Assembly (NCBI GenBank): GCA_052034235.1
Contig: JBPOIT010000008.1
Span: 79,081-143,080 of the forward strand
Source of the DNA: Candidatus Levyibacteriota bacterium
GTDB taxonomy: Bacteria > Patescibacteriota > Microgenomatia > Levybacterales > UBA12049
Direction of reading: 5' to 3'
DNA: 64,000 bases
Position 1 is the first letter of the stretch, and each line of letters opens with the position of its first letter. Below the pieces are notes generated by a model, which ran no database searches, was not told the DNA's origin, and saw only the letters and a program-made list of their open reading frames with translations. Made by a program: the position numbers and the translations under genes. Below, piece by piece: positions 1,955 to 51,014 of this stretch.

Positions 1955-2036
1955 GCGGATGTGGTGAAATGGTAGACACGCAAGTTTTAGGAACTTGTGC
2001 CCAAAAGGTGTGGAGGTTCGAGTCCTCTCATCCGCA
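1955..2036 (+). tRNA. tRNA-Leu (anticodon UAG), class II with long variable arm
   Basis: Cloverleaf folded by hand: acceptor GCGGATG/CATCCGC, 3-bp D stem, anticodon stem CAAGT/ACTTG, loop TTTAGGA (U33, anticodon TAG, G37), 14-nt variable arm, T stem GGAGG/CCTCT with TTCGAGT loop, discriminator A; CCA not encoded. Confidence 0.85.
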
Positions 2037-2055
2037 CAAAAGGTTGTTATACCTT

Positions 2056-2937
2056 TCAAGTGGTTACTATTGGTTTCATTTTATTACTAAAAAGAGTTAT
2101 TGGATTAGCTACTAAAATTTGTTTTCTTGTAGGATCATCTTGCCCCAAAAGTGTAATAGGCCAGAGATCTGCCTCATATGGTGGAACCCATCCTAAATCT
2201 GTCCCAGCTAAAATCCTGTCTGGTCTTTCTTCACACATAGTAAAAAATGCATTTTTAGCTCGTTCGTTCCATTCTGTTATGTTTGGGTGTACCGTTACTG
2301 TTCTTCTTCCTGTGTCAGGATCGAATCGTCGAGATTCTCCTATTTGATGCATACACGTTGTGTTTAGATAAACACGATCTTCCTTTGTTGCAAATTCGAC
2401 TGCTTCATCCATATATTTAGGGTCAAGCCCGCCAAAATGAGCGAGGATAAGTGTAAGATTTGGAAATCGTTTTAGAACATCTTTGCTCATTGCTACTGAA
2501 TTAAAATCTTGACCAGATCCAGCTGCATGGAGCAAAAATGGAATTTTATTTTTTTGCGCAATATCATAATAAGGATAATACCGTGGATCATCCATAGGAA
2601 TCCTAAAGAGCGCAGGATGAGACTTTATACCAACAACAAACTCTTTACCTGCAAGCATTTCAATCTCTTCTGGTTTGTCAGCCTTGGAGCTGAATTCAGA
2701 TTCTTCGTTAGGGTTTGCCATGAGATACATACCAAGAAAACGTGGATCATCTATTACTTTCTCTAAAGTCGCTTTATTCTTTTTAGCAGAAAAAGGAATC
2801 GTGAGAAATCCTGTGTCACTAAATTCCGGAGCGTGGAAGTATCCAGTTGTATCACCAATACCCAGTCGTCTTGATTTTCCTAGAAATGTATGTGTATCAA
2901 TTACTTGTAATTTTTGAGGACGAGTTTCTATGCTCAT
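2056..2937 (-). CDS. metal-dependent amidohydrolase (amidohydrolase-2-like TIM barrel)
   Basis: N-terminal VIDTHTF (HxH metal site), later ILAHFGG and HAAGSG motifs typical of amidohydrolase-2 family; 293 aa. Confidence 0.55.
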   Translation of the reverse strand: MSIETRPQKLQVIDTHTFLGKSRRLGIGDTTGYFHAPEFSDTGFLTIPFSAKKNKATLEKVIDDPRFLGMYLMANPNEESEFSSKADKPEEIEMLAGKEFVVGIKSHPALFRIPMDDPRYYPYYDIAQKNKIPFLLHAAGSGQDFNSVAMSKDVLKRFPNLTLILAHFGGLDPKYMDEAVEFATKEDRVYLNTTCMHQIGESRRFDPDTGRRTVTVHPNITEWNERAKNAFFTMCEERPDRILAGTDLGWVPPYEADLWPITLLGQDDPTRKQILVANPITLFSNKMKPIVTT

Positions 2938-2965
2938 AGCAAAGGTATAATAATGTGCTAGTCAG

Positions 2966-3874
2966 TTACTTTGGCAAATAAGCCAATAGTCTTTCGACAT
3001 CTGGTTGCTCCATTTCAAATGAAAGTGCGGCAAGATTTTCTCTCATGTGCATCGGATTTTTTGTCTGAACCAAGGGTACCGCTCCCCATTCATAAACAGC
3101 GCGAATTCCCACTTGAGCTGGAGTCATGTTATATTTATAAGCTATTTCTGTTACAACATCGCTAGCATCCTGACTCCCAGTCAGTCCTCTGTTTAGCGCG
3201 GCTGATGCCTCAAAAACAATGCCATTAGCACGACATATCTTACGAGTTTCAGCTGCATCTGGACGAGGATTTGCTAAATTCACTTTAGCTTGATACACAC
3301 TTACTGTACCACCTACTTTATCAACCTCGTCAATTGCAAGTCCTAATTCATCTGGCCGCAGATTACTTAACCCAACTGAACGTGCATGACCAATCTTTAC
3401 AGCAGCAACTAAGCCTTTTACTCCCACAAGCATATCTTGTTCACGGTCTTCCCACCTATTGTGCAAAAAGAGAACATTTGGAACTCTACCAAGTCTTTCC
3501 CTGCTTTTTTGAGCAGCATCAATTATATAATCATACGGAGAAGTTCCAGTATCGGGTGGTATTATACCTACTTTGGTTGCAATAGTTAACTGTTCGTGTG
3601 GGAATGCTAGGATAGCCCTGCGGACAGCTAATTCTGATGCTCCATATGCCTGAGCGGTATCTATATGATGAAACCCAAGACCGATTGCAATTCTCAATAA
3701 TCCAGTATCTTTTTTTAAATCACCAGGTAGCGCAGGAAACATTTTTGTTTTTTGATCTTGCTCAGTGCCCGCAGCATATGCTGCTGTTCCAAAACCTATA
3801 GGATTACCAATTATATTTGATATGTTAACTCCTGAATCTGGCAATCCACCACCAGTATATTTCTCATGTCCCAT
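2966..3874 (-). CDS. aldo/keto reductase family oxidoreductase
   Basis: GFGTAAYA, HIDTAQAYGASE, LFLHNRWED motifs characteristic of AKR superfamily; 302 aa. Confidence 0.7.
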   Translation of the reverse strand: MGHEKYTGGGLPDSGVNISNIIGNPIGFGTAAYAAGTEQDQKTKMFPALPGDLKKDTGLLRIAIGLGFHHIDTAQAYGASELAVRRAILAFPHEQLTIATKVGIIPPDTGTSPYDYIIDAAQKSRERLGRVPNVLFLHNRWEDREQDMLVGVKGLVAAVKIGHARSVGLSNLRPDELGLAIDEVDKVGGTVSVYQAKVNLANPRPDAAETRKICRANGIVFEASAALNRGLTGSQDASDVVTEIAYKYNMTPAQVGIRAVYEWGAVPLVQTKNPMHMRENLAALSFEMEQPDVERLLAYLPK

Positions 3875-4007
3875 AGCAGTATTATAGCAATTTTTTTACA
3901 AAATGGAAGTACTTCGAATGTATAACGGAAATATAACCTATCACACCGGGAGTAATGAACATTGAAGATTTTCTGGTTTCCACAAACGTTGATGAGATGA
4001 TGATATG

Positions 4008-4039
4008 AGGTGTGGAGGTTCAAGTCCTCTCATCCGCAC
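4008..4039. repeat. direct repeat: copy of the 3' 32 nt of tRNA-Leu (end of variable arm + T arm + acceptor 3' strand), 1 mismatch
   Basis: aggtgtggaggttcaagtcctctcatccgcac vs tRNA 2005-2036 aggtgtggaggttcgagtcctctcatccgcac. Confidence 0.8.
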
Positions 4040-4095
4040 TAGACCGGACATCGTGTTCGGAAGAACTCGAATAGCTTGATATATAGGGCTAATTA
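4040..4095. repeat. 56-nt unit (tagaccggacatcGtgttcgga...) repeated at 4924-4979 (~49/56 identical)
   Basis: Direct sequence comparison of the two intergenic regions. Confidence 0.8.
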
Positions 4096-4158
4096 AAACT
4101 AGACATAAACCATTACATTCTATCCTCCAAAAATTAATAGCAATTTAGCCTCAGAAAT

Positions 4159-4177
4159 GGTTCAAGTCCTCTCATCC
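4159..4177. repeat. second short copy of tRNA-Leu T-arm fragment ggttcaagtcctctcatcc
   Basis: identical to 4018-4036; a third copy tggttcaagtcctctc at 5041-5056. Confidence 0.75.
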
Positions 4178-4275
4178 TGTTTTTCCATAAATCGATAGAT
4201 GTAATTTTCTAAATACTATTGCCAATACGAGCTTAATATATTGACAAAAGGTATGTTATGTCATAAAATCTATAA

Positions 4276-4560
4276 GTGAAATATTTTGATTGGGATAAAG
4301 AGAAGAATGAGCGCTTAAGGATAGAACGTGATATATGCTTTGAAGATATCCTTACTATTCTTGAAGAGAAAGACTTTCTCGATGTCGTAGAGCATCCTAA
4401 TACAATAAAATATCCTAATCAAAAAATGTTTGTGATAGAATGGGATGAATATGTATATTTAGTTCCATTTGTCGAAGATGAGGAAAAGTATTTTTTAAAA
4501 ACTATTATTCCAAGCAGAAAAGCCACAAAGCAATATTTAGAAAAGAAAAAATTACTATGA
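4276..4560 (+). CDS. brnT: BrnT-like toxin (DUF497 RNase, type II TA)
   Basis: GTG start; N-terminal YFDWDKEKNERL and C-terminal IIPSRKATKQYLEKKK resemble BrnT family consensus (FEWD...IISARKAT.KE...Y); 4-nt ATGA overlap with downstream antitoxin. Confidence 0.6.
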   Translation: MKYFDWDKEKNERLRIERDICFEDILTILEEKDFLDVVEHPNTIKYPNQKMFVIEWDEYVYLVPFVEDEEKYFLKTIIPSRKATKQYLEKKKLL

Positions 4561-4817
4561 AATATTACGAATTACCAAAAGAAGAACAAGAATTACTTGA
4601 AGAGTACGAAAAAGGAGAATTTAAAAGTGTTTCCGATCTTAAAACAGTAAAGGAACAATTTTCCCAAATTGCCAAGAATACTCTAAATAAAGCGAGAAAT
4701 ATCAATATTAGACTTTCAGAGAAAGATTTAGTATTGCTTAAAAGAAAAGCTGTAGAGGAAGGTATTCCCTATCAGACACTTGTATCTTCTGTTCTACACA
4801 AATTTGTAAGTAAATAA
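4557..4817 (+). CDS. brnA: BrnA-like antitoxin (ribbon-helix-helix)
   Basis: C-terminal INIRLSEKDLVLLKRKAVEEGIPYQTLVSSVLHKF matches BrnA RHH pattern (ISIRLPxxxLxxLKxxAxxxGxPYQSLIKxxL); overlaps brnT by 4 nt. Confidence 0.6.
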   Translation: MKYYELPKEEQELLEEYEKGEFKSVSDLKTVKEQFSQIAKNTLNKARNINIRLSEKDLVLLKRKAVEEGIPYQTLVSSVLHKFVSK

Positions 4818-4862
4818 ACATTAATTATTTTCTACGATTTATAGTTTTCTTCGGCTTGATAC

Positions 4863-4923
4863 GCTTCCATAAATTTAATAAGTTGAGCTAGTAATGGTTC
4901 AAAATAAAACCGCTCTTCCGCAC
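4863..4923. repeat. 61-nt repeat ending in degenerate tRNA 3'-end copy (ggttcaaaataaaaccgctcttccgcac); second copy at 6228-6288
   Basis: gcttccataaattt[A/G]ataag...ttcaaaataaaaccgctcttccgcac in both; ~53/61 identical. Confidence 0.8.
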
Positions 4924-4979
4924 TAGACCGGACATCCTGTTCGGATAACCTCGAATAGCTTGATAAATAGGGTTAATTG
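4924..4979. repeat. second copy of the 56-nt tagaccggacatc... unit
   Basis: see 4040-4095. Confidence 0.8.
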
Positions 4980-5040
4980 TAAGCAGTTTAATTCTATATT
5001 GGGCTACTTATAATAAATTATTAAAATTCTAGCCTTATAA

Positions 5041-5056
5041 TGGTTCAAGTCCTCTC
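5041..5056. repeat. third short tRNA-Leu T-arm fragment copy (tggttcaagtcctctc)
   Basis: match to 4158-4173 and to tRNA T arm. Confidence 0.6.
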
Positions 5057-5128
5057 TTTTCATTATAATCTTACCGCTTGACAAATGGGTATTATATAGG
5101 TACTATATGGGTAGTCGTTTTTGAACTT

Positions 5129-6175
5129 ATGTTTACACCCTACTTTACTATCACTCCTAAAATAACAAAAGATATTGAATTAATAGGTCAAATATTTGGA
5201 TATTTTCGTGCTGTCACACTTCCCCTTGGCTACAGAAAAGAACTTATTACTAAAGTTACTGCAGAAACAGTGCATGCCTCAACAGCAATAGAAGGGAATA
5301 CTCTAACTGAGAAACAAGTGCAAGAAGTATTAGCAGGAAAAGAGATACATGCGGAGGATCAAGATATTAAAGAAATCATCAATTATAATAGCGCACTTGA
5401 TTATATTGAAAAAATTGTAAAAGATACGAAAGAACTAGTAATTACAGAGGTATTAATCAAAGAAATTAATTTTATTATTCTTAAAAATATACGAGATGAT
5501 ATTTCAGGAGCATATAGAACTGGACAGGTGCGTGTTGGCGACTATGTGCCTCCTGATCATTTGAAAGTGCCAACTTTAATGTCTGAATTTATACAATGGA
5601 TCAAAGATCCTCTGCCTACTTCTCTATCACCTATTCTCTATACAGGTATTGCGCATTATCAATTTGTTGCGATTCATCCATTCACTGATGGCAATGGAAG
5701 AACGACACGCATTTTGACTACACTTATGCTTGCTCTCAATGGATATGATATGACAAGTTTCTTTGCTCTCGAGAGTTATTACAACCGAAATAGAAAAGCT
5801 TATTATGAAGCTCTTAACTCTGCTGATAAATATAGAATAAACGGAGAACCTGATTTAACTAGATGGCTTGAATATTATGTAGAAGGAATGCTTATAGAGG
5901 CAACACGTGCAAAATCACGAATTGAAGAATTGCACGAAAAAAGTAAAATGGTTAGTGATAAAGCTTGGCTAAGTGACATTCAGATTAAGATGCTCAAGCT
6001 TACGATAAAACAAGGCAAGGTAAAAACAGCAGATTATCTGCTTGTTTCAGGATTGAGCAGAAAAGGCACGTATAATGCTTTGGAGAAGCTAGTACAAGAA
6101 GGACTTATAAGCAGGAATGGAACGAATAAAGGAGCATATTATACGGTTACTGAAAAAGGATTAACGTATCGATAA
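5129..6175 (+). CDS. Fic/Doc family protein (class II, internal inhibitory motif), C-terminal winged-helix-like tail
   Basis: Fic active-site motif HPFTDGNGRTTR; upstream inhibitory-helix motif S-T-A-I-E-G-N ([ST]xxxE[GN]); ATG at 5129 preferred over TTG at 5078 which lies inside the repeat; TTGACA-17-TACTAT promoter at 5078-5106. Confidence 0.75.
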   Translation: MFTPYFTITPKITKDIELIGQIFGYFRAVTLPLGYRKELITKVTAETVHASTAIEGNTLTEKQVQEVLAGKEIHAEDQDIKEIINYNSALDYIEKIVKDTKELVITEVLIKEINFIILKNIRDDISGAYRTGQVRVGDYVPPDHLKVPTLMSEFIQWIKDPLPTSLSPILYTGIAHYQFVAIHPFTDGNGRTTRILTTLMLALNGYDMTSFFALESYYNRNRKAYYEALNSADKYRINGEPDLTRWLEYYVEGMLIEATRAKSRIEELHEKSKMVSDKAWLSDIQIKMLKLTIKQGKVKTADYLLVSGLSRKGTYNALEKLVQEGLISRNGTNKGAYYTVTEKGLTYR

Positions 6176-6305: not shown

Positions 6306-8075
6306 TTAATCTTTACGTGGTTCAGAAAGTTTATCTACTAACATCTGCATCGAAGGAGCATAGGTTACACCCTCTTGCGTAAAATGAAATGCGTAGTTTA
6401 TAGATCCAACTGAACCACCATCAGTCGTGTATGAAGCTGCATCAGCAATGTTATACATCATTAGCAATTGGAGCATCTCACTATACCCCATACCAGCTTC
6501 ATGAGCCATACCTTCAATTTCTTTTTTTGTCCTCTCAATACTATCATCGATTTTATCTTGCACAACTGGATTAGCAATAAGAGCACGTAGTCTTGTACTT
6601 CTTGAGCCGAAGTGCAGTACTGTTCCATATTTTTTAAGCAATACTCCTACAGGATTCTCTCGTTCGAGTACTGTCGATGCAATTTTCATTTCACCATCAG
6701 TTGCACCAGCCATTTCAAGTACCCTAGTTCCAATGAGAGTATTGAAATAATGTTGAGAAGCTTTGTAATGTTTTGCTAAAGGTTTACCTATATCGTGAAG
6801 CGCCAATAACAATCTATAGAAAGTCTTGCGAACATTTCCTGGGAGCTCCTCTAGCTTTCCAAAAATTTTTTCATGCTCTATCATTGTTGATAATGTATTG
6901 TAATGCAAAGTTTGCCCCTCCCAATTTGAGATCTGGGCATACTGTTCAGATAAGAAAGCTGATTGACTAAGTGCATCGATGACATGTTGGGGATGATAGT
7001 CTTGCCCCATTCTTCCATCCGCTATGTCTAAAATATCACGGGGAACAGATTCATAATCTGCTTCCTGCAATGTCATTCTGCGTTTCTCACCAGTTTTAAA
7101 TTGCTTTTCTATACGCGTATTCCGTTGTAATATCGTGTGTTGTTCTGTAGGGAAATGGCTTGCATGAAGGTCTACGCATTCTATTGGCAATACTGGAATA
7201 GTTACTCCACTATCTATTGCTTTATTTTTTACCATTTCCACTTGACTTAGCGGTACCTCTAGCGCTAATAATTTCCCAGGAGGGACATCAAACATTGTTC
7301 TATCTTCAAACCTTGATAATGCAGGAACTCGATATGAACTGACCGCATCTGCGTCAAACACAGCAATAACTGGGAAATTACCTTCTATTGTAGAATATGC
7401 ATCCGCCAAATCCATATATTTTAGGTCCCTTGGAATATCCTTGCGAACCTTTCCGAACCAACCTGGTGAAAAACGTGGGCCGTCTTTTACTCCGTAGTGA
7501 GTTTTTCCTACTGTATAAGCCAAAGTTAAAAATTCAGATGGTCTCATATCTAAACCTGTATCTAAGGCGAAATACATTGCCCAATCTTTTTTCGATCCAT
7601 ATTGCCAGACGAGTGGAATACCTTCTGTTTCATGTAATAGCGCGTACGATCGTGCGTAAAAACGCGCCCTGGATAGAGAAGTTGTAGGCATATTACCAGG
7701 TGTCCCTAACCAGCCATCTGGTGCTACTTGTACCCCTTCATCAAAAATTCCATCTACAATATTTGACACCTCTTCGGTATATGTACCTGGTGTACTCTCA
7801 TGAGCATATTGAAGATAACCTGTCCCATGAAAGAAACGATCTGTCCTGATCTTTTCACTGCCATATATGGATTCAATAACGGGTTTATACCTTGTGTATG
7901 CTTCACTCACACTTTTCGGAACTTCAACATTCCTTGCTTCGGTTAAATTCCGTTCTAGACTAAGATATCCTTTTATTATTTGAGTAGGTACATCAATTCT
8001 ATTTGGTAATTCTCTTCGCATAACCATAAAAATGGAATTATAACAAAACCTGTAGGTATTAACAATGACCTCCAC
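6306..8075 (-). CDS. large HD-domain phosphohydrolase-like protein with ~370 aa unknown N-terminal region
   Basis: C-terminal half carries H...LHDIGKP...H...D pattern of HD superfamily (QHVIDAL, LLLALHDIGKPLAKH); rest unrecognised; true start may be internal Met (e.g. ~8027). Confidence 0.5.
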   Translation of the reverse strand: MEVIVNTYRFCYNSIFMVMRRELPNRIDVPTQIIKGYLSLERNLTEARNVEVPKSVSEAYTRYKPVIESIYGSEKIRTDRFFHGTGYLQYAHESTPGTYTEEVSNIVDGIFDEGVQVAPDGWLGTPGNMPTTSLSRARFYARSYALLHETEGIPLVWQYGSKKDWAMYFALDTGLDMRPSEFLTLAYTVGKTHYGVKDGPRFSPGWFGKVRKDIPRDLKYMDLADAYSTIEGNFPVIAVFDADAVSSYRVPALSRFEDRTMFDVPPGKLLALEVPLSQVEMVKNKAIDSGVTIPVLPIECVDLHASHFPTEQHTILQRNTRIEKQFKTGEKRRMTLQEADYESVPRDILDIADGRMGQDYHPQHVIDALSQSAFLSEQYAQISNWEGQTLHYNTLSTMIEHEKIFGKLEELPGNVRKTFYRLLLALHDIGKPLAKHYKASQHYFNTLIGTRVLEMAGATDGEMKIASTVLERENPVGVLLKKYGTVLHFGSRSTRLRALIANPVVQDKIDDSIERTKKEIEGMAHEAGMGYSEMLQLLMMYNIADAASYTTDGGSVGSINYAFHFTQEGVTYAPSMQMLVDKLSEPRKD

Positions 8076-8099
8076 TTGGTTGATATATAAGACCTATAG

Positions 8100-8978
8100 G
8101 TGTATAATCTTCCTTTTATGATTACTCAAGAAAGACACAAACGATCCGGTGAGTATTATGCAAAAGTTCTTTGGGGAATGAGCGAACGAAGGACGAGTCG
8201 AAGAATAGATAGACTGGATGTTCCGCAAGATGACAAAGATCTTGCAAAGCAACTATTAACAAGTCACAAAAATAGGTATTCATCAGTAGCGGCCTTAGAA
8301 GTTCCACATCTAGAATTAAGCCCAACTGAGAAATTAGGTGTTGTTTTTTTTATATCTTCAATTTTTGCTGTCGATGACCTGATCGATACGAACAAAAAAA
8401 ATGGTTCTACTAACCTGTTTAGCGAACAGCTAGATACGCTTAAGGTAAGAGACACTGGAATAACAGTAGCACAGTTGCGAGACAAGGTATACGATTCCTT
8501 TGCTGGTGATAAACGTACACTTCTGGAAAGATATTATGCAAGTATGCTTGAGTTACATAACCAGGGACACGTAGCACCTGCCGGTACATATAGTTTTAAG
8601 GATGCATGGGAATACAAAGAAAATACTACTGTGCCGTTTGTAGAAACAGTTGCTGATTTAGTTGGCTTTGATGCTAATAGGCGTAATGATGTGAGTGCAG
8701 GAGCGATGGCTTTACAATTAGTTGATGATGCGAATGATATTGCACAAGATACACAAGAAAAATCAATGAATATCTATCTTGGCCTTGCAACTGATAACGG
8801 TGAATTATCACAAATAGATTGTGCACTTAGAAATAAGGACTTGACACGAACCGAACTATTCAAGGCTGCCCCGTTAACACATGCACAGTATCTAAATATA
8901 TTTGACGTAGCTGTCTCACACTTGTCAAAACCAGGTAGACGTGGAATTTTGCGAGCAATAGGGAGAATTTATATGTAG
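8100..8978 (+). CDS. isoprenoid-synthase-fold protein (class I terpene synthase / phytoene-squalene synthase-like), tentative
   Basis: Two Asp-rich motifs ~120 aa apart: FAVDDLID (DDxxD) and LVDDANDIAQDTQE (DDxxD overlapping ND..Q...E, NSE/DTE-like); ALQLVDDAND...NIYLG resembles CrtB/SQS second motif; start more likely ATG 8118 (leaderless after TTGATA-17-TATAAT promoter at 8080-8108). Confidence 0.35.
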   Translation: MYNLPFMITQERHKRSGEYYAKVLWGMSERRTSRRIDRLDVPQDDKDLAKQLLTSHKNRYSSVAALEVPHLELSPTEKLGVVFFISSIFAVDDLIDTNKKNGSTNLFSEQLDTLKVRDTGITVAQLRDKVYDSFAGDKRTLLERYYASMLELHNQGHVAPAGTYSFKDAWEYKENTTVPFVETVADLVGFDANRRNDVSAGAMALQLVDDANDIAQDTQEKSMNIYLGLATDNGELSQIDCALRNKDLTRTELFKAAPLTHAQYLNIFDVAVSHLSKPGRRGILRAIGRIYM

Positions 8979-9032
8979 AGCATTCGCACCTTGAACAACA
9001 GGTGTAAATCTATTATAATTCATTTTACACAT

Positions 9033-9869
9033 ATGGCAAAAGCAATACTTGCTCGTCAGGATGACGGGACACTTACATTGACACTTACTATCCCTCAGGA
9101 AGCGGTTAAAAAGGCTCGCACTGAAGTCGTTAAAAACATGGCTGCAGGTGCTGAACTACCTGGATTCCGCAAAGGAAAGGCTCCTGAAAAATTGGTTGAA
9201 GAAAAACTCAATCAAGATCAGGTTCGTGAAGAAATCCTTAAAAACTTACTTCCACAGATCTACACAGATGCAGTTGAAGAACATAAGATAAGGCCTATCA
9301 TGAATCCAAAACTCCATGTTGAGAAAATTGAAGACGACAAAGACTGGATTGTTACTGCATTGACCTGCGAAATGCCTGAAGTTGATCCTGGCGCTTACAA
9401 AGAAAATGTGAAGAAAATAACAGCAAAAAGTAAAATAGTTATCCCAGGTAAGGAAGAGGAAGCAAAAAAACCAAGTACAGAAGAAGTACTGAAAGTCGTT
9501 CTTGATGGAGCAAAGGTAAGTGTACCTGCAATTCTTGTTGAACAGGAAGCAGATAGATTAATTGCACAGCTTTTGGATGATATTAAACGTCTTGGACTGA
9601 GCCTTGATCAATATCTCGGTTCTACCAAGCGAAACCCTCAAGATCTGCGAGCAGAATACGCAACACGAGCAGAAAGTGATATCAAACTCGAATTTGTGCT
9701 TCAAAAAATCGCAGAAGATGCAAAGATATCAGTTGATCCAAAAGAAGTAGACGAGGCTATCACCAAGGCTAAGAGTCCTCAAGAAAAAGAGAGCATGGAA
9801 GCGAATAGATACCTTCTTGCAGGCATACTGAGACAACAGAAAACGCTTGATTTCTTAATGAATCTATGA
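9033..9869 (+). CDS. tig: trigger factor, short form lacking the PPIase domain
   Basis: N-terminal ribosome-binding signature GFRKGKAP; C-terminal arm-domain-like region; only ~279 aa so the central FKBP domain is absent; ATG at 9033 chosen over upstream in-frame start. Confidence 0.6.
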   Translation: MAKAILARQDDGTLTLTLTIPQEAVKKARTEVVKNMAAGAELPGFRKGKAPEKLVEEKLNQDQVREEILKNLLPQIYTDAVEEHKIRPIMNPKLHVEKIEDDKDWIVTALTCEMPEVDPGAYKENVKKITAKSKIVIPGKEEEAKKPSTEEVLKVVLDGAKVSVPAILVEQEADRLIAQLLDDIKRLGLSLDQYLGSTKRNPQDLRAEYATRAESDIKLEFVLQKIAEDAKISVDPKEVDEAITKAKSPQEKESMEANRYLLAGILRQQKTLDFLMNL

Positions 9870-9884
9870 TAGAGTCCACATACT

Positions 9885-10517
9885 ATGGGCAAAACAAAGA
9901 CAAAGCAGCTTAACCCACTTCAGCACAGCCTGGAGACAGTCCAGGATTATGCCTCCAATGGGGCAAAAAACATCGTTAAAAGTTCCGCAGACATCGCAGG
10001 TCAATCAACTAACGATTTCTTTGAGATGCTTGGACTCGATACCAAACCTGAATCCCAAGGCAATAAAGATCCAAGACGTGGTGAAGTTGAACTTTTTAGT
10101 TCAGAAAAAAAGCATAAAGTAGAATCACGAGCACATATCGAATATCATGATGAAATTCGTAAATCTGGCGAACATGCAAACCGAGCCGTAGAAAGCCAAG
10201 CAATTCGCAAAATCCAAGAGGCACTTTCTGAGATACAACAGCTTATAAAATCAAGTAAAACCCTAGAAATTGAATTTGCTGAATTTGCAGTAATGGAAGC
10301 ACCAACCGAAGTGGGAGAATATGACCTCAATTTCTTTGAATGGCTCATGCTTACTATTAAACAAGCCCGTGAGAAAGTTGAAGATTCAGGAGCTTGGCTA
10401 TCTGCAGTAAAAGGCAAAAACGGTAAAAAGGGTACAGATTATTGGTCAATGTCTCAAAAGCACGGGACATCTTTCAGCATGTCCAATGAACGCTCCAGTG
10501 CAACTTCAGTCGGTTAA
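9885..10517 (+). CDS. hypothetical protein
   Basis: 210 aa ORF, charged, no recognisable motif; 3' end overlaps sufU convergently by 12 nt. Confidence 0.4.
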   Translation: MGKTKTKQLNPLQHSLETVQDYASNGAKNIVKSSADIAGQSTNDFFEMLGLDTKPESQGNKDPRRGEVELFSSEKKHKVESRAHIEYHDEIRKSGEHANRAVESQAIRKIQEALSEIQQLIKSSKTLEIEFAEFAVMEAPTEVGEYDLNFFEWLMLTIKQAREKVEDSGAWLSAVKGKNGKKGTDYWSMSQKHGTSFSMSNERSSATSVG

Positions 10518-30768: not shown

Positions 30769-32238
30769 ATGGATCTTAAAAATAAATTACTCTTTGACAA
30801 AGGTCAACCAATACAATTGGGGCTTGGACTCCACAACATAGGAAGTGGCGTACTCCGTTATTCTCATGAAGACGTTAAAAAAACAGTTCAAGATTATTAC
30901 GCACAGCGCTGCGGACATCTGCCGCTCAATGCCAAAACAGTTGGCATGCTCGTTGATGAAATAACAGAAGATATCCGTTCACAAGCCGCATATCTGAGTC
31001 AGTTATACGGAAGAGAAATCAAACTGCTAACGCATGAAGATCTCAAAAAACTCAAAACGAAACCACTCATCGTACCTTATATCCTTGTTCCAGAAGTTGA
31101 AGAACAATTTTCTAAAATTGATGCAAACATGTGGGGGATTCCGGGCAAATTAACACATGTGTTGAAAAACAAATCGGAATTCTATCGCATGGTCAATGTT
31201 CTTAAAGTGGACGATTTCCGTGTGCCTGATTATCAAACTGCCTATTTAGCAGAAGTTATCCCGTATACTAAAGCATTTCTGAAAAAAATTGAAGATATGT
31301 ACACGGAAGCTGGCGTAAGAAATACGTACCCAGTAGGTGTCATGCTACGAGCAGCTGATGAAGATGGTAACTTTGGAAGCTCACTGCTTTATGAAAAAGG
31401 CAAATATGTTGTCATGATCCCAAATGGGGAAATTAGTGACGCACGTGTTTATGGTAATTGGGAAGAAGCACTTGTTAATTCAAAACGCATCCTCGCAGCA
31501 GCCATGCAAACCCAAAAAGAGCCACGTGTCGTTGTAAGCAGATACATCGATGTCGTTGATTCACCAGGATTATCGGTTGTTATACTCAAGGGTTCGGTCT
31601 TTTCACTTGGATGGAACGTACAAACTCAAAAAGAGCCGAGTCGAAACCCTGTCGTTGCTGGAACATACCGTCCAAAAGATCCAATTCTTAAAGGACTTCA
31701 GGAGAAATACGAAACATATTCAGCAAAAGTACTCGAAAAATACCTTCGCAAAACAGCGGAACGCTGCAAAATTGATTTTAATGCAATTGAAGGAATTGCA
31801 AATATTGATCTTATCATTCCAAGTGCGTTAGAGAAAAAATTCCAGGAAAAACGCGGCAATAAAATTGACTTTTACTTTGCAGAATGTAACCCTCGCTGGA
31901 CCACATACTCAGACGCAGTCTTAACAGTGCTTGGAGCGAGAAAACTAGATGCTACAGTTAACAATATGCTCAAAGTTATCAAAGAGGGTATCGCTATTGT
32001 CGATAATTATAAACTTCCAAGTACTATCGATCCAAGAAGTGTCCGTGATCTTATCTACCAAAAAGATCAAGAATTGCAGAAACAAGGCACTAGAATTATA
32101 TGTAGAATGACAACTAATCCAATGGGGGTTATCTTCGCAGGAGATATTGAACTTGCGCAACTTGAGATGAAAAATATCGTAAAGAGTCTCCATTCGCAAA
32201 ACGTAACACGTTCTGCTGCGGAATTTCTTTTTCAATAA
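30769..32238 (+). CDS. hypothetical protein, possibly ATP-grasp-fold ligase
   Basis: 489 aa; C-terminal FYFAECNPRWT resembles the ATP-grasp E-x-N Mg-binding motif; otherwise unrecognised. Confidence 0.3.
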   Translation: MDLKNKLLFDKGQPIQLGLGLHNIGSGVLRYSHEDVKKTVQDYYAQRCGHLPLNAKTVGMLVDEITEDIRSQAAYLSQLYGREIKLLTHEDLKKLKTKPLIVPYILVPEVEEQFSKIDANMWGIPGKLTHVLKNKSEFYRMVNVLKVDDFRVPDYQTAYLAEVIPYTKAFLKKIEDMYTEAGVRNTYPVGVMLRAADEDGNFGSSLLYEKGKYVVMIPNGEISDARVYGNWEEALVNSKRILAAAMQTQKEPRVVVSRYIDVVDSPGLSVVILKGSVFSLGWNVQTQKEPSRNPVVAGTYRPKDPILKGLQEKYETYSAKVLEKYLRKTAERCKIDFNAIEGIANIDLIIPSALEKKFQEKRGNKIDFYFAECNPRWTTYSDAVLTVLGARKLDATVNNMLKVIKEGIAIVDNYKLPSTIDPRSVRDLIYQKDQELQKQGTRIICRMTTNPMGVIFAGDIELAQLEMKNIVKSLHSQNVTRSAAEFLFQ

Positions 32239-32382: not shown

Positions 32383-32410
32383 CCCTCCCAATTTGGAGGG
32401 TTTGCTTTTG
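32383..32410 (+). terminator. intrinsic terminator after tRNA-Val (ccctcc-caattt-ggaggg + T-rich)
   Basis: hairpin followed by tttgcttttg. Confidence 0.5.
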
Positions 32411-32416
32411 CTACGT

Positions 32417-33241
32417 ATGTCATTACCGGTTGAGATTGAAAGACCTTATTTTGAACCAGTCGAATTATTAGGAACAGAACATAAGTTTTGGCCTAATGTG
32501 ATAGATGTTCTCCAAACACATGATACAAGAACTCTATATGATCGAGTTGTTGCTGTTGCCAATCAGGCTCCAAATGTAGACTTAGTGGCAGTACATGAAA
32601 TGATAGATGTTATCTCCCTTGAGTATGGTGATAAACCACCAAGAAAATTAACCGGAGATAATGAAATAAATCACTCTCTTCAAGTGTTTTTAGTTGGTGC
32701 AGAATTGATTGGTCCGGACAGTCTAACAACTCAACAGGCACAAATCATGTTAGGACATAATCTGGTTGAAGATACTACTTTGCCACGTCAGGTTCGAAAA
32801 AATATGGGAACTGTTGTTCATGATGGAATTGATGCTCTCAGTCACCATGTAGCTGGTGTAGCACGTTTTCCAAATGGTGATAAAACTCCTCATTTCAATG
32901 AAATTATAAATGCTCACGATGATCCTGAACATGATAAATCGGAACTTGTAACGATCAAAATAGCAGACTTTATCGTTGTTGGAAATGATCCATTAACTCC
33001 TAGCGAACTTGTAGACTCAACAAGAATACCACAATGGCAATCGATGACCGACAAAAAGATTCGTGAAATGAAGCTCTTCAAAAGTCTTCTACCCCAAGAA
33101 CAAACCGGTGCTCATCGAAGATTAAGGGAAGCTATTGCATTTACGACACTTCGGCAAGACCCACAAGCACAGACAAAACTTACCGAAGTTTTACAGAGAA
33201 GGACTGCTCAAGAACTTCCTAGACAAGTACCAACAAAATGA
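32417..33241 (+). CDS. HD-domain protein related to small alarmone hydrolase (Mesh1/SpoT-hydrolase-like) with HD dyad replaced by HN
   Basis: EINHSLQVFLVGAEL...LGHNLVEDTT aligns by eye with Mesh1/SpoT INHPIGVA...LLHDTVEDT; ATG at 32417 preferred (TTG 32393 lies in tRNA terminator). Confidence 0.45.
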   Translation: MSLPVEIERPYFEPVELLGTEHKFWPNVIDVLQTHDTRTLYDRVVAVANQAPNVDLVAVHEMIDVISLEYGDKPPRKLTGDNEINHSLQVFLVGAELIGPDSLTTQQAQIMLGHNLVEDTTLPRQVRKNMGTVVHDGIDALSHHVAGVARFPNGDKTPHFNEIINAHDDPEHDKSELVTIKIADFIVVGNDPLTPSELVDSTRIPQWQSMTDKKIREMKLFKSLLPQEQTGAHRRLREAIAFTTLRQDPQAQTKLTEVLQRRTAQELPRQVPTK

Positions 33242-33819
33242 CAAGTAACAATGCCTACCAGTTATTAACAAAGTACATGCAGAACAAAAACCTGCTGAAG
33301 CATTCTCTTGCAGCTGAGGCAGCTATGAAGGGAATTTATCGCCATCTTACTCCTCAGGACAAACAAAATGAGACTGATGAAGAAATTTGGGGAATTACAG
33401 GATTACTTCATGACATCGATTATGAAGTTGCACAAAATGAAGGCAAACTCGATCAGCACGGGACATTTGTTGGGATAGCGGAGAAAGACGCATTACCAAA
33501 GGATATTGCCCACGGCATTCAGGCACATGCTTATGTCTATTCAAAAGTTATGCCCGAATCACCAATGGATTGGGCAATAACAGCTTGTGATCAGCTTACT
33601 GGTCTTATTGTCGCTTGTGCGCTCGTACAGCCTGAGAAAAAACTCTCAATCCTTACTACCGAATCAGTCCTTAAAAAATTCCGGATGAATGCATTTGCCA
33701 AGGGAGCGGATAGAAACGCAATTCTATTTTGTGAATCAAAACTAAACATTGAACTTGCGCAGTTTGTCGAAATTGTCCTCAAATCCATGCAAGGTATAAG
33801 TAAGGAAATAGGATTATAA
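33238..33819 (+). CDS. HD/HDIG-family phosphohydrolase-like protein
   Basis: LKHSLAAEAAM...GITGLLHDIDYE (H...HD) pattern; 193 aa; ATGA overlap with upstream gene. Confidence 0.45.
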   Translation: MTSNNAYQLLTKYMQNKNLLKHSLAAEAAMKGIYRHLTPQDKQNETDEEIWGITGLLHDIDYEVAQNEGKLDQHGTFVGIAEKDALPKDIAHGIQAHAYVYSKVMPESPMDWAITACDQLTGLIVACALVQPEKKLSILTTESVLKKFRMNAFAKGADRNAILFCESKLNIELAQFVEIVLKSMQGISKEIGL

Positions 33820-34139: not shown

Positions 34140-34712
34140 TTATGCCGTTGCTTGCCTAGCGGAAACCCTTTTTGGCTTATTCCTTAATGGTCTAACTAAA
34201 GTTTGCAAAGCTTTAACAACACGGGGATTTGTTTTAGGATTTTGTTGTGCTTCAACTTGTTCAACAATTTTTTCCATTCGCAAATATCCCTCTATTGATT
34301 CTTCATCTGTCTCAGGGTTTTCATGAAGTTCAGTCAGTCCATTTTTCAAACGCTCTGCTATCCCCTGAGAGAAAGTATACTTGTAAACCCCTTCATCGAG
34401 ATCAAATATAATTTCTTCATATGGACTTTCTTGCTGATGAGCCTGCTGTTCATTAATTACTAAAATTCTAATTTGATCAGTTGAAGAGGTACGATCATAA
34501 CTCATCGTAACCAATTGTCTTCCACTTCGTTGATCGAGCATTTCTCTTCGTGTTTGTGGGGTGGTAGTTACTTCATCCGATTTAGGATACGGTAACTCAT
34601 ATGTGCTAGGAGAAAAAGACGAAACGCGGTTCTTTATTGTTTTTGTCAATTGAGAGATATCATCATGAGTTACCTCACGAGTCATTGCTATTTCTGGAGA
34701 TATTTCTGCCAT
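34140..34712 (-). CDS. hypothetical protein
   Basis: 190 aa ORF, acidic, no motif recognised. Confidence 0.4.
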   Translation of the reverse strand: MAEISPEIAMTREVTHDDISQLTKTIKNRVSSFSPSTYELPYPKSDEVTTTPQTRREMLDQRSGRQLVTMSYDRTSSTDQIRILVINEQQAHQQESPYEEIIFDLDEGVYKYTFSQGIAERLKNGLTELHENPETDEESIEGYLRMEKIVEQVEAQQNPKTNPRVVKALQTLVRPLRNKPKRVSARQATA

Positions 34713-35576: not shown

Positions 35577-35605
35577 AAAAAAACCACTCTTCAAGAGTGG
35601 TTTTT
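35577..35605. terminator. bidirectional intrinsic terminator (A7-ccactct-tca-agagtgg-T5)
   Basis: perfect 7-bp stem flanked by A-run and T-run. Confidence 0.65.
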
Positions 35606-35662
35606 GGTTCTTCAATTTTCCTCAAAAATGTCCTCCCACAGGCATTTGACTTATGCCTAAAG

Positions 35663-37006
35663 ATGACCTATAATATTTCGATGCGTGAAAGAATATTCTC
35701 TTCCAGGACTGGGAGAACAGTGCGTGCTTATGCCTCATTGGGCATGATGCCTTTTGTTGGAGGATTTAGTGCTGAAACTGAAGCAGTATCTCAAACAACT
35801 GAGATGCGCCCAAGTACAAGCACCGTTCAGACAGTTACACAAGTCACAACCGGTGGTGTTGATTTAGATCGCGGGCAAGTTATTCTGGAAAAGCGTACCG
35901 TGAAGCCTGGTGATATGGTCACTCAGATAGCTGTGGATCAGATACATGCAGCAGGTAAAAAAAGTACGAGAGTAGGCAGGGATATCGTTACAGCATTTAC
36001 TGCAACAGCTTCTTCACTCAAAGATGCAGATATTATCGTACCCGGCAAACAACTGTCAATTCCTGATAGAAAAACTGTACGTAAACTTGTCGAAGCCGGT
36101 AGGGGAAAAGGGGATCCCAAGACAGTAGCGGAAGTGAAACAACTTGCTGATGCAATCAGAGCAAGTAATAATAATTTTAACGATAAAGCGGTGCGAGAAG
36201 AGGCAACAGATGTCATACAAACACTAACTCATGGCAATACTCAACCAACTATCGCTGAGTCACCAAGTACGAATGAACAACCCAGTGAAGCCCAGTCACC
36301 TAACACCAACACCGTCCCTCAAGTATCGCGTGGTGGAATTATAGAGTCACCAGAACAACCTACTAATATATCAACCCAACAAGTGCCAACTGCAAATGAG
36401 ACAAATGATAATAATAGCCCTTGGGTACCACTTGTCCCCCTGAGCGCTGTTTTACTAGCTGCAAGTGCGGTCGTAGGGATAGGTTACAACTCTTTAAAGA
36501 AAAAATATCCACCAGATCCTGAGAAGAAAAGCGGCAAGGAAAAGTTTTTGACATGGTTAAAAAAAGGACGCCCGATTCCTCAAGAGACTCAAGAAGATGT
36601 GAACGCGTGGTTATGGGAGGACGGCATACTTGCAAAGCTTAAGGCATCTCCATATAGACCATACCAAAGTGATGAATCATGCTATTTTGAATACTTCAGA
36701 AACACTTCTGATGTGGAAAGAATTCTTGCCAGAATGAATGGGCAACTTGATAAGCAAAGTAAATCCCATCTGGAAGCTTTTAAAGAAAATATATTTAATA
36801 AAGATAACCTTGTATTGGTAGTATATCTGGAGGAACCCAAATGGGGATATAAACTCATACCACGTATCGATGTTATAGAAATACCCAACGAGGAAAGTCT
36901 TATTGCCACAGGAGAAATACCTGTTGTGCCTGGTACACTTACTTATAGAACATTACACCCTGGCATTGGAAGAGACACGCAGGAGAGACCTCTCGTTCGA
37001 GGGTAA
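35663..37006 (+). CDS. LysM-domain membrane protein with low-complexity Thr/Gln/Asn-rich linker
   Basis: RTVKPGDMVTQIAVDQ...IIVPGKQLSIPD LysM pattern; TM helix WVPLVPLSAVLLAASAVVGIGY; start moved downstream because 35597 lies in terminator hairpin. Confidence 0.5.
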   Translation: MTYNISMRERIFSSRTGRTVRAYASLGMMPFVGGFSAETEAVSQTTEMRPSTSTVQTVTQVTTGGVDLDRGQVILEKRTVKPGDMVTQIAVDQIHAAGKKSTRVGRDIVTAFTATASSLKDADIIVPGKQLSIPDRKTVRKLVEAGRGKGDPKTVAEVKQLADAIRASNNNFNDKAVREEATDVIQTLTHGNTQPTIAESPSTNEQPSEAQSPNTNTVPQVSRGGIIESPEQPTNISTQQVPTANETNDNNSPWVPLVPLSAVLLAASAVVGIGYNSLKKKYPPDPEKKSGKEKFLTWLKKGRPIPQETQEDVNAWLWEDGILAKLKASPYRPYQSDESCYFEYFRNTSDVERILARMNGQLDKQSKSHLEAFKENIFNKDNLVLVVYLEEPKWGYKLIPRIDVIEIPNEESLIATGEIPVVPGTLTYRTLHPGIGRDTQERPLVRG

Positions 37007-37852
37007 CTACTTCTTAAATTTTTCCCGAACCTCTTTACTTATTTTTTGATTAATCCGTTCAAAAGCCACTTCTCTTGAACCAGGTGTCAATAATTGGTCT
37101 GGAGTAAATAATTCCATGCTTACTGTTTCTCTATCATTTCTTCCATAGATAACGTGAAGGTTACCGTTGCGGTCAAAACCCATAAAAAATGCCACATTTT
37201 CAGTTGCAGTTTTACTGGCATTTTTCGGCGCAAGAAGAAGCGCTTTACCAGGTGCTTTATCTGATTGTTCACCTGGAGTAAGTGATTCATCGGCAAATTG
37301 TTCAGCATCAGACACTCTTCTACCTCTATTACCAGGAAATCTGCCCATGAGCTTTGTAGCACGTAATATCGCTTCATCAGTATCCAACACCCCAGTTCTT
37401 GCTAAATCTGCATGATCATGAATTTCACCATATAAGAGCGGAGAATCTGTACCAGCTGGGTGTCCCCAAAAAACATTTATTGTCGTAGCACGGTAGAAAA
37501 AGGTCATGCCTTCATCAATTGTAAAGGGTATCTGGATAAAATGACGTGGCTTGTAACGAATACCGTCTTCAGTTGATACTTGTTCAAAAATCATCGGCCG
37601 TTCAACGGAGAGAGGTTGACCTTGAAAGACATTTGCCCGTTTAGAGAGAGGAGGCATATGACCACTTGTTTCATTTCTCATATTTTCCTGAGAGATGTAT
37701 GCAAGAAATGCATCCAAAACACCTGCCTTCCCAACAGGCATCTCTGTTGAAAGTAAATTTGTCTGCTCAGTAAGAGGTGGTGGCAACTCTTCGAGGAAAT
37801 TTCTCTGTGGTTGACTATTTATTGTTCTTCTCCAACTTTCTATTAATCTCAT
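37007..37852 (-). CDS. hypothetical protein
   Basis: 281 aa ORF, no motif recognised. Confidence 0.4.
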   Translation of the reverse strand: MRLIESWRRTINSQPQRNFLEELPPPLTEQTNLLSTEMPVGKAGVLDAFLAYISQENMRNETSGHMPPLSKRANVFQGQPLSVERPMIFEQVSTEDGIRYKPRHFIQIPFTIDEGMTFFYRATTINVFWGHPAGTDSPLLYGEIHDHADLARTGVLDTDEAILRATKLMGRFPGNRGRRVSDAEQFADESLTPGEQSDKAPGKALLLAPKNASKTATENVAFFMGFDRNGNLHVIYGRNDRETVSMELFTPDQLLTPGSREVAFERINQKISKEVREKFKK

Positions 37853-37942: not shown

Positions 37943-38968
37943 TTGAATGTATTTTTCTATAATGTCCCGATGGGTGGTAAAGAGCGTAAAGGACGAAAGA
38001 AGCATGTACAAGCAGGTTATCCAATAGAATCACTTGAGCTTACAAGTGTGTTTACAACAATAAGTGGAAGGCCACTAGATGAGGAATCTACTTTGCATTC
38101 AGCTGCAGCAGAGCGCACCAAATTTGTGTATGTCAGAAATGTTCACCCAGATTCAAGAGGTGCCTTTCCTGACTGGCCCATGAACAGTACTGCCATGCAA
38201 GAAGTTACGAGTAATAGAAAACGTATCAGTAACGACTTAGCGTGGCTCAATCAACAATACTACGGAAATGAAAAACCTCAGATGGTCACGACAAAGCAAG
38301 CACATGAGCTTGCAAGTATTGGAGTCTGGATGCCTGCATTTCTCGTATTCCGGGCAATTAATCCTGTTAGAATAAGAGAAATTCCCGATAATGTTGGTGA
38401 CTTATATAAAATTGCACAAGGTATACAAAGCGCAACAAAGGTTTTACAACAGGAGCAGGGAGATACGTATCCAGTTACACCGGAAGTAATCTATGAAATG
38501 GCTGACAGAATGCAACCAAATAAGCTTCCGCTCCTTGTAAACGAAACTGTAGAGCGAGTCTGTCCTGCATCAGAAAAAATCATCAGGGCTACGGCAGCTG
38601 TTCTTTTGGACGGAGCTGAAGGAAATCCTGCAGAAAGCGATTTGGGCGCATACATAAACGTCGAAGAATTTTCTAGACTGAAGGACTTTTCACTGGCAAG
38701 TACCATATATATCGCAAGCATTTTTGACTACTTCCACGAAATGGATCGTCGAAAAATCCTCTTAGCTGAAGGAGTTACGAAAGATAGTTTTGGTCAATTA
38801 GTCCGCGTAGATAGGAATAAAGTGGCAACTGAAATGAAAGCTCTCGATGACGAGTTTGTCCGGAGCAGAACCATATTGCAAAGAACTTTTAATACCTCAT
38901 TGGGGAGAAATCCATCAAACATCATGTCTGATGAAACGATTTTCGCAAAGCATGGACTTATACGCTAA
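37943..38968 (+). CDS. hypothetical protein
   Basis: 341 aa ORF, no motif recognised. Confidence 0.4.
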   Translation: MNVFFYNVPMGGKERKGRKKHVQAGYPIESLELTSVFTTISGRPLDEESTLHSAAAERTKFVYVRNVHPDSRGAFPDWPMNSTAMQEVTSNRKRISNDLAWLNQQYYGNEKPQMVTTKQAHELASIGVWMPAFLVFRAINPVRIREIPDNVGDLYKIAQGIQSATKVLQQEQGDTYPVTPEVIYEMADRMQPNKLPLLVNETVERVCPASEKIIRATAAVLLDGAEGNPAESDLGAYINVEEFSRLKDFSLASTIYIASIFDYFHEMDRRKILLAEGVTKDSFGQLVRVDRNKVATEMKALDDEFVRSRTILQRTFNTSLGRNPSNIMSDETIFAKHGLIR

Positions 38969-40363: not shown

Positions 40364-40903
40364 ATGATTGAGCAATCAGTTCCACTGCAAGAAAGGGTAC
40401 GATCCTTACAGGCAGCCGGTCATCCAAATGCATTAGAATTCGTTGCCGCAAAGAGAATCGCTGATGTAGCTCATGAAAGCACAAGCGGTAATTGGTGGGA
40501 AGACTGGCGAAGGCAAAGACCAAATCCATGGTATAGCCAAACTGAAGAAGGACTAATAGTAGTCAGAGGCCGTGGAGGAAAACAAGTCTTTGATACGTTG
40601 ATGACACCTTGGGGAGAATGGCACACAGTAGGCTCACGGTTAGGAATAATTTTTGACCAAGAAAGTTTTTTGAAAGAAGTCACACTCGAACCATTTGGAA
40701 CCCCACCACCAAGTGTCGTTAGCTTTTCAGCACACTTTGGAGAATATTATGGAGTGAAATCGGTAGGCGGACTGACACTCCCAAGAGCCTCCTTGAGAGA
40801 AAGACCGAATAACTATTTTCAAACTGGGGATTCATGGAAGGCGCTTCAAGACACGTATAATTCGGTAGTTCCCCCAAGAGAAGCCCCCCGAACAAGAAGA
40901 TAG
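40364..40903 (+). CDS. hypothetical protein
   Basis: 179 aa ORF, Trp-rich, no motif recognised. Confidence 0.4.
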   Translation: MIEQSVPLQERVRSLQAAGHPNALEFVAAKRIADVAHESTSGNWWEDWRRQRPNPWYSQTEEGLIVVRGRGGKQVFDTLMTPWGEWHTVGSRLGIIFDQESFLKEVTLEPFGTPPPSVVSFSAHFGEYYGVKSVGGLTLPRASLRERPNNYFQTGDSWKALQDTYNSVVPPREAPRTRR

Positions 40904-40960
40904 ATACTTTAATTATCTTATAGTTTGTAAATTTCCTCAATTTTTGATACAATCCCGTAT

Positions 40961-51012: not shown

Positions 51013-51014
51013 CA

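Follow-up and report, generated by a model that had tools for sequence, protein, structure and literature searches.

A sequence-divergent protein family with a predicted class I isoprenoid-synthase fold, encoded beside an orphan gene in a Levyibacteriota genome

The stretch of DNA analyzed here (the window, 64,000 nucleotides of contig JBPOIT010000008.1 from a Candidatus Levyibacteriota bacterium) carries a pair of divergently transcribed genes that encode a 573-amino-acid (aa) and a 286-aa protein. An initial annotation had described them as an HD-domain phosphohydrolase and an isoprenoid-synthase-fold protein, and both open reading frames (ORFs) were found where it had located them. As mechanical ORFs, both opening with GTG, they encode 589 aa (6306..8075, minus strand) and 292 aa (8100..8978, plus strand). 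The true starts are more probably the ATG codons at 8027 and 8118, because independent public contigs call proteins of 573 and 286 aa and because each ATG lies 9 nt past a TATAAT hexamer. The quoted intergenic distance of 24–90 bp reflects this choice, with 24 bp separating the mechanical ORFs and 90 bp the ATGs. The quoted peptides also occur in the translations, QHVIDAL and LHDIGKPLAKH on the minus strand and FAVDDLID and LVDDANDIAQDTQE on the plus strand, with 117 aa from D86 to D203. Compared with the 93–98% identical relative L001, both genes are under purifying selection, with ratios of nonsynonymous to synonymous divergence (dN/dS) of 0.20 for the 573-aa gene and 0.28 for the 286-aa gene. 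The features of the pair are as follows.

6306..8027, minus strand: 573-aa orphan gene (ORF), function unassigned
6441..6905, minus strand: HD-like motif set of the 573-aa protein, H375 (TLHYNTL), H411-D412 (LALHDIGKP, codons 6792-6797), and D529 (YNIADAAS), from the sequence
8028..8117, between the two genes: divergent intergenic region of 90 bp with back-to-back promoter-like sites (consensus scan)
8065-8037, minus strand: promoter-like site TTGTTA-17-TATAAT with a TG upstream of the -10, scoring 10/12 and serving the 573-aa gene
8080-8108, plus strand: promoter-like site TTGATA-17-TATAAT, scoring 11/12 in the consensus scan
8118..8978, plus strand: 286-aa gene with a predicted class I isoprenoid-synthase fold, member of an unmodelled family of ∼290 aa
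8373..8387, plus strand: the first of two Asp-rich motifs, DDLID (D86-D90), close to the C-terminus of predicted helix 69-95, the helix-D equivalent
8715..8771, plus strand: second metal-binding motif, Q200-x2-D203-D204-x2-D207-x3-D211-x6-N218, where predicted helix 186-206 (the helix-H equivalent) ends

Used as a single query, the 286-aa protein had no match in Pfam (E ≤ 1), NCBIfam, PADLOC, PHROGs, or the PDB sequences; a scan of GTDB genomes with the same protein returned nothing, and a word-index homology search recovered near-identical copies only. An exhaustive HMMER search of 1.84 billion cluster representatives identified 59 proteins at E ≤ 1e-3 (24 of these at E ≤ 1e-10), nearly all of them 280–310 aa long. 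Conservation was counted in an alignment of 56 sequences (A2; mean column identity of 23%). Five residues are invariant in this alignment (D86, D90, Y166, D204, and D207), a further six are near-invariant (K132, Y158, Q200, D203, D211, and N218), and R53, G74, F78, [R/K]167, T170, T254, R255, and Y258 are frequent. Within the first Asp-rich motif, position 87 is Asp in 41 of the 56 homologues. The second motif is kept almost throughout, with Q200 and D203 each found in 53 sequences, D211 and N218 each in 55, and D204 and D207 in all 56. The initial annotation had offered two readings of this second stretch, an Asp-rich motif and an NSE/DTE-like triad of the form ND..Q...E. The Asp-rich reading is borne out by the conserved pattern QxxDDxxDxxxD...N, whereas the residues of the supposed triad, N206, Q210, and E214, are all variable across the homologues. 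At i, i+4, i+8 spacing, conservation instead falls on the triad D203/D207/D211.

An AlphaFold2 (AF2) model built on the 56-sequence alignment is all-helical, with a predicted local distance difference test score (pLDDT) of 92.8 and a predicted template modeling score (pTM) of 0.89. The top 50 Foldseek matches to this model in the PDB are all class I isoprenoid synthases (E ∼4e-3, probability of 1.00, template modeling (TM) scores of 0.4–0.56) and include epi-isozizaene synthase, polyprenyl diphosphate synthases, and squalene synthase. Structure comparison gave values of 13.7 for MoeN5, 13.6 for geranylgeranyl diphosphate (GGPP) and solanesyl diphosphate synthases, and 13.5 for the carbazole prenyltransferase CqsB4, followed by HpnC (12.5), human squalene synthase (12.4), epi-isozizaene synthase (12.4), and CrtM (12.0). 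The modeled all-alpha bundle superposes on class I isoprenoid synthases and places D86 and D90 of the DDxxD motif near the C-terminus of helix 69–95. At the end of helix 186–206 lies QLVDDANDIAQD (residues 200–211). Between the two motifs, a short helix (101–107) is followed by longer helices (117–127, 130–148, and 160–182), a layout that corresponds to helices D-E-F-G-H. The model thus agrees with two predictions of the initial annotation, an isoprenoid-synthase fold and Asp motifs positioned on the equivalents of helices D and H. The class I fold is common to trans-prenyl diphosphate synthases, squalene/phytoene synthases, MoeN5-type prenyltransferases, and class I terpene cyclases. The 286-aa protein represents a sequence-divergent family within this superfamily.

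Profile comparisons across the family point in the same direction at low significance. NCBIfam models run over all 56 members gave noise only, while Pfam SQS_PSY touches four of the members (best E of 6.5e-5) and polyprenyl_synt touches one (E of 0.044). Searched against PDB sequences, the family profile finds only chains of trans-isoprenyl diphosphate synthases (trans-IPPS), at their second Asp-rich motif (SARM), with a best E of 0.0074; this match aligns the second motif of the family with FQLVDDIMDYASD of the hexaprenyl diphosphate synthase 4jxy. The profile places the first motif on the DDVVDE/DDVIDK stretch (first Asp-rich motif, FARM) of polyprenyl synthases, and the aligned stretches are collinear and individually non-significant. 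In an hhalign comparison with E. coli IspA, Y166-R167-xx-T170 falls on HRHKT and the second motif on FQVQDDILDVVGD (the SARM), with a P of 0.006 and a probability of 6%.

The conserved residues suggest a chemistry for the family. The DDxxD and QxxDDxxDxxxD...N motifs would coordinate a cluster of Mg2+ ions and, through it, bind the diphosphate group of an allylic prenyl diphosphate, and R53, K132, [R/K]167-xx-T170, and T254-R255-xx-Y258 would complete the diphosphate site. Metal-assisted ionization would then generate an allylic carbocation, to be captured either by an acceptor (prenyl transfer) or by its own chain (cyclization or hydrolysis). On the sequence evidence we favor a single-diphosphate enzyme, either a prenyltransferase or a small terpene synthase, over a synthase of farnesyl diphosphate (FPP) or GGPP, because only three to four basic residues are conserved, which suits one diphosphate site better than a pair of them, and because RRG and GGKRxR, which mark chain-elongating synthases, are absent. 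We infer a ranking in which a single-substrate ionizing enzyme (a prenyltransferase to an acceptor other than isopentenyl diphosphate (IPP), or a small terpene synthase) comes first, an FPP/GGPP synthase second, and a head-to-head synthase third.

The sole relative of the 573-aa protein in a word-index search is P0002, which is 93% identical. No relatives were found in GTDB genomes, JGI metagenomes, or IMG/VR viral contigs, none in phages and plasmids by tblastn, and none in the PDB by phmmer and profile searches. The protein comprises an unrecognised N-terminal region of ∼310 aa, a linker (∼311–339), and a C-terminal region of ∼230 aa (340–573) that is helical in a low-confidence structure model, whose pLDDT of 36 makes it unusable. 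As to the HD domain claimed by the initial annotation, the motif is there, including LHDIGKP, but the profile support fails: the Pfam HD model, the sole family model to give any signal, scores 12.3 bits (E of 0.21; residues 404–438 of the 589-aa ORF) against a cut-off of 22, scans of the C-terminal fragment and of P0002 do not bring the signal back, and the two halves of the protein give nothing useful. The motif set is plausible in itself, LALHDIGKP being a signature typical of HD proteins. H375, 36 aa upstream of H411-D412, is a better candidate for the first His than QHVIDAL, 63 aa upstream, and D529 in YNIADAAS is a candidate for the last ligand. All of these residues are kept in P0002, which carries little weight as a single 93% relative. 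The C-terminus of the 573-aa protein may be a degenerate HD domain of a metal-dependent phosphohydrolase or nuclease. An ADP-ribosyltransferase-like reading of the N-terminal stretch FFHGTG ... TTSLS ... IEGNFPVIAVF was also considered; we found no evidence for it and do not claim it.

The TTGATA-17-TATAAT element reported upstream of ATG 8118 is real and stands back to back, at a separation of 14 bp, with the site that faces the 573-aa gene. Each -10 hexamer ends 9 nt ahead of its own ATG, a spacing that suggests leaderless transcripts from both genes, and the intergenic region is 97.8% identical in L001. The arrangement TATAAT-N9-ATG occurs four times in the window against 0.82 expected (none of 100 shuffles reaches four), and two of the four instances are the starts of the 573-aa and 286-aa genes. 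More broadly, a -10-like hexamer (TATAAT-like) lies 6–13 nt before the ATG at 15 of the 47 gene starts in the window, and a Shine-Dalgarno-like sequence of any kind at six. The promoters of the pair look real, yet nothing about them is special to the 573/286-aa pair, because those 15 starts share the same TATAAT-ATG geometry. The 47 starts suggest that initiation in this organism is largely leaderless or independent of Shine-Dalgarno sequences.

Synteny between the window and L001 ends at 6285, just past the stop codon of the 573-aa gene, and the genes from there back to a tRNA-Leu vary between strains, as listed together with the two genes that follow the 286-aa gene.

1955..2037, plus strand: tRNA-Leu(tag), which bounds the slot on its outer side and is conserved, the same tRNA flanking it in L001 and L005
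2056..6175, several genes: strain-variable accessory genes for an amidohydrolase, an aldo-keto reductase, BrnT/CopG, and a SoFic-type Fic protein (Pfam, PADLOC)
4276-4817, plus strand: BrnT/CopG toxin-antitoxin pair, just upstream of the Fic gene
5078-6175, plus strand: SoFic-type Fic protein, a single-gene anti-phage defense model (PADLOC, E 5.5e-61)
9033-9869, plus strand: trigger factor (tig; Pfam), a recurrent neighbor of the family gene
9885-10517, plus strand: DUF5660 protein (Pfam), a recurrent neighbor of the family gene

The accessory genes at 2056..6175 are absent or different in L001 and L005. Between the tRNA-Leu and the family gene, L001 carries a different BrnT/CopG pair and the 573-aa gene, and L005 carries a single methyltransferase gene. 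The 573-aa gene, an orphan at the level of strains, occupies the inner end of this variable accessory slot and has no demonstrable link to the 286-aa gene. The Fic and BrnT/CopG genes themselves make up a small defense/toxin-antitoxin islet within the tRNA-Leu-linked slot.

Members of the 286-aa family occur in the following contexts.

Window, L001, L013, and L014 (query or 98% identity): family gene just upstream of the trigger factor and DUF5660 genes, then the Suf operon
L005 (P0004, 28%): family gene-tig-DUF5660-Suf
L017 (P0029, 24%): tig-DUF5660-family gene-infC-rpmI-rplT-pheST
L010 and L011 (P0010, 27%, 297 aa): within the S10 operon of ribosomal protein genes, between rpsJ (S10) and rplC (L3)
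L003 (P0003, about 39-40%): after the genes for an ECF-type (extracytoplasmic function) sigma factor and a 74-aa protein
L007 (P0006): after a MacB-type ATP-binding cassette transporter
L015 (P0014): after a RelB/YafQ pair

The trio of family gene, tig, and DUF5660 in the window and L001, L005, and L017 represents three divergent lineages in which DUF5660 stands beside trigger factor; DUF5660 is not mentioned in the literature we searched. Two loci place the family near genes of isoprenoid metabolism. In L003 an isopentenyl phosphate kinase (IPK) gene lies 1.2 kb and a cis-prenyltransferase gene 2.6 kb from the family gene, and in L010 an IPK gene lies at 4.5 kb; the two kinases match PDB 7lnt with E values of 4e-34 and 5e-30, respectively. 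In both loci (L003 505-2627, L010 710-2162) the IPK gene is followed by a conserved hypothetical gene of 218/229 aa that has no Pfam match, and in L003 the cis-prenyltransferase gene comes next. Clustering of IPK with cis-prenyltransferase genes is an arrangement described in Microgenomates-type bacteria of the Candidate Phyla Radiation (CPR) (PMC6107057). The window itself has no IPK gene, and a literature search on trans-IPPS gaps in the CPR yielded nothing specific. The IPK context is a suggestive but loose link between the 286-aa family and isoprenoid metabolism. The hypothetical protein that follows IPK is possibly a divergent IDI/Nudix protein, and the IPK cluster of L003 and L010 adjoins genes for a conserved ECF-like sigma factor and a 74-aa membrane protein. 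In L010 (5602-7797) and also in L011, a SET-domain gene lies between tuf and rpsJ, beside P0010.

Comparison of the window with L005, which shares the gene order, gave the following amino acid identities.

SufB: 91%
tig: 81%
SufD-like: 80%
SufS: 66%
DUF5660: 29%
286-aa family protein, same position: 28%

On both sides of a conserved tig, the family protein and DUF5660 thus have the look of deeply divergent alleles in a fixed position (L005 2489-4980 versus window 8118-10517). Compared with L001, by contrast, no stretch of the locus is as conserved at the nucleotide level as the family gene (98.7%), with 94.3% for the 573-aa gene and ∼89% for SufS/NifU/SufD-like. Identity peaks at 98–99% over ∼7800–9300, a tract that runs from the promoter region through the 286-aa gene into the beginning of tig, with flanks at 89–94%, and synonymous divergence (dS) is 0.03 in the 286-aa gene versus 0.16 in the neighboring 573-aa gene. 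This looks like a deeply divergent allele swapped in within one lineage and a recent recombination tract in another, rather than steady fast evolution. The pattern speaks against a plain, essential housekeeping synthase and favors a function of the accessory type that can be exchanged.

These observations bear on several explanations, of which the one we consider probable is that the 286-aa protein belongs to a divergent class I isoprenoid-fold family and that the 573-aa gene is independent, the two forming no functional pair. The two-gene unit of the initial annotation, in which an HD protein might, for example, dephosphorylate the prenyl (di)phosphate substrate or product of an isoprenoid-fold enzyme, is very improbable. 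The divergent orientation and the closely spaced promoters in a region so well conserved in L001 would suit it, as would the retention of the pair in L001, L013, and L014, with which a 5' fragment of the 573-aa gene on L002 agrees. However, the pair is limited to strains at least 93% identical. Such a neighbor is missing in six of the six distant homologues with upstream sequence (L003, L005, L007, L010, L015, and L017), and tblastn with the 573-aa protein detects nothing in the loci that carry distant family members. In L005, where the tig and SufB products are 81–91% identical to those of the window, a methyltransferase fills the slot. The 573-aa gene, moreover, has no homologues elsewhere, its HD assignment is unverified, and synteny breaks at its very end, beside the toxin-antitoxin and SoFic genes. 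A different proposal sees in the family a divergent short-chain trans-prenyl diphosphate synthase with a housekeeping role, which would make FPP or GGPP and supply the allylic primer to the cis-prenyltransferase (undecaprenyl diphosphate synthase) of these CPR-like bacteria. We regard this as unlikely: in addition to the missing RRG after the first motif, the missing GGKRxR-type IPP site, and the scarcity of conserved basic residues, the positional ortholog in L005 is only 28% identical where tig reaches 81% and SufB 91%, which is atypical for an essential conserved synthase, and Pfam polyprenyl_synt reaches a single member of the family. A head-to-head synthase of the squalene/phytoene type (HpnC/HpnD/CrtM-like) is less likely still and in our view improbable. 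SQS_PSY is unmatched by the query and by 52 of the 56 members, the conserved Arg beside both SQS/PSY motifs (RxxDD, RD) is absent, and none of the examined contexts contains a desaturase, HpnE, or cyclase gene. Hopanoid or carotenoid synthesis is not known from CPR-like organisms, which also counts against this proposal. The least probable of these explanations is a non-enzyme that keeps the fold and has a structural, regulatory, or assembly role, comparable to NDUFAF6 or to the non-catalytic subunits found in heteromeric prenyl synthases. It would fit the recurrent neighbors, which are translation and chaperone genes rather than metabolic genes, and the very low overall conservation (mean column identity of 23%). 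Yet the residues kept in 56 very divergent sequences are the metal-binding Asp residues together with Q200, N218, Y166, and K132, which is an active-site pattern, and non-catalytic subunits typically lose their metal-binding aspartates.

Several points weigh against the divergent family with an independent neighbor that we prefer. Sequence links to known families are weak, as the absent Pfam match of the query and the 6% hhalign probability for IspA indicate, and the family members are so far uncharacterised. Among candidate types obtained by structure-guided mining of class-I-like folds, three of six were active (PMC11234867). The proximity of IPK genes is loose and could be explained by compact genomes alone. 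Regarding the neighbor, the HD assignment is unverified, with a short motif as its sole basis, and the pair is kept, with its conserved shared promoter region, in all four contigs of the window lineage, which may reflect lineage-specific co-regulation. Tentatively, one can go further and suppose that the family, with its proteins of ∼290 aa, forms a new class of terpene synthases or prenyltransferases with the class I fold that is found specifically in uncultured CPR-like bacteria. Strains would exchange it as a divergent allele in a slot that stays fixed next to trigger factor, and its terpenoid or prenylated product would vary with the lineage; in a sub-variant, it would be the FPP synthase that these bacteria are missing. 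This extension is possible but doubtful, and if the terpene synthase/prenyltransferase reading were true, it would mean unexpected specialized isoprenoid chemistry in organisms thought to be nearly devoid of it.

Elsewhere the window does not look as streamlined as the initial annotation had called the genome, since it holds complete-looking ilv/leu and shikimate/aromatic amino acid operons, along with Suf genes, aminoacyl-tRNA synthetase genes, and many genes for hypothetical proteins. The shikimate/aromatic operon (50044-60147) ends with a 438-aa ORF (58831-60147, plus strand) that joins a prephenate dehydrogenase N-domain to a prephenate dehydratase, an apparent TyrA-PheA fusion. Between 30769 and 46626 there is a long run of ORFs without a Pfam match (E ≤ 1e-5), at 30769-32238, 32393-33241, 33238-33819, 34140-34712, 35597-37006, 37007-37852, 37943-38968, 40364-41458, and 41867-46626. 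The run is broken by a DUF4332 protein and by a 431-aa protein of several helix-turn-helix repeats (39006-40301).

The class I isoprenoid-synthase fold is well known, and the 286-aa family is invisible to Pfam and NCBIfam: it surfaced only through exhaustive HMMER searching and structure prediction, with a catalytic aspartate set that looks complete, and it appears to reside in poorly known bacteria. If active, it would add there either a missing isoprenoid step or the first specialized terpenoid or prenyl-transfer chemistry, and would be one more of the growing number of non-canonical class I terpene synthases revealed only by structural models. The "terpene synthase + phosphohydrolase operon", attractive as it is, reflects a chance arrangement in a variable accessory slot, and the idea should not be passed on.

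Comparison with known systems defines how far the resemblance goes. The 573-aa protein shares with HD phosphohydrolases (PF01966) the H...HD...D spacing and the LHDIGKP signature in a region predicted to be helical, but it has no significant HD profile or PDB match, and its N-terminal ∼310 aa are without a relative. For the 286-aa family, the closest motif likeness is to trans-IPPS (PF00348; IspA, 4jxy, and the GGPP synthase 6kd7), with which it shares the FARM DDx2-4D and the SARM (F)QxxDDxxD, its second motif matching QxxDDxxDxxxD letter for letter. It differs in lacking RRG after the FARM (positions 91–95 are variable) and the GGKRxR IPP loop, and in having fewer conserved basic residues, with only R53 conserved in the N-terminal region; in addition, the query does not match PF00348, and identity within the family is very low. 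MoeN5/CqsB4-type prenyltransferases (PDB 5b00 and 7vwt) resemble the 286-aa protein by structure only, at 12% identity, with no relationship detected at the sequence level and no acceptor-pathway genes near the 286-aa gene. With squalene/phytoene synthases (PF00494; HpnC 4hd1, human squalene synthase, and CrtM 2zco) the family shares the DxxxD spacings, whereas the adjacent Arg (RxxDDxxD; RDxxxD) is missing, positions 83 and 206 being variable and non-Arg; PF00494 is unmatched by the query, and there is no carotenoid or hopanoid context. Relative to class I terpene cyclases, the triad is D-D-D rather than N-S-E/D-T-E, with the same spacing and other residues; the protein has 286 aa against 330–360 aa, and neither an RY pair nor an effector triad is identifiable. 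Because the sequence models and some of the signature residues of trans-IPPS, squalene/phytoene synthases, and terpene cyclases are not matched, we treat the family as a new divergent one within the superfamily. Among the non-canonical classes IB–IF, the class IB motifs DYLDNLxD and DY(F,L,W)IDxxED, as well as the class ID motifs, differ from those of the 286-aa family (PMC11234867). In status, the 286-aa family appears comparable to these non-canonical class I terpene synthases, which recently emerged from the mining of structural models (PMC11234867).

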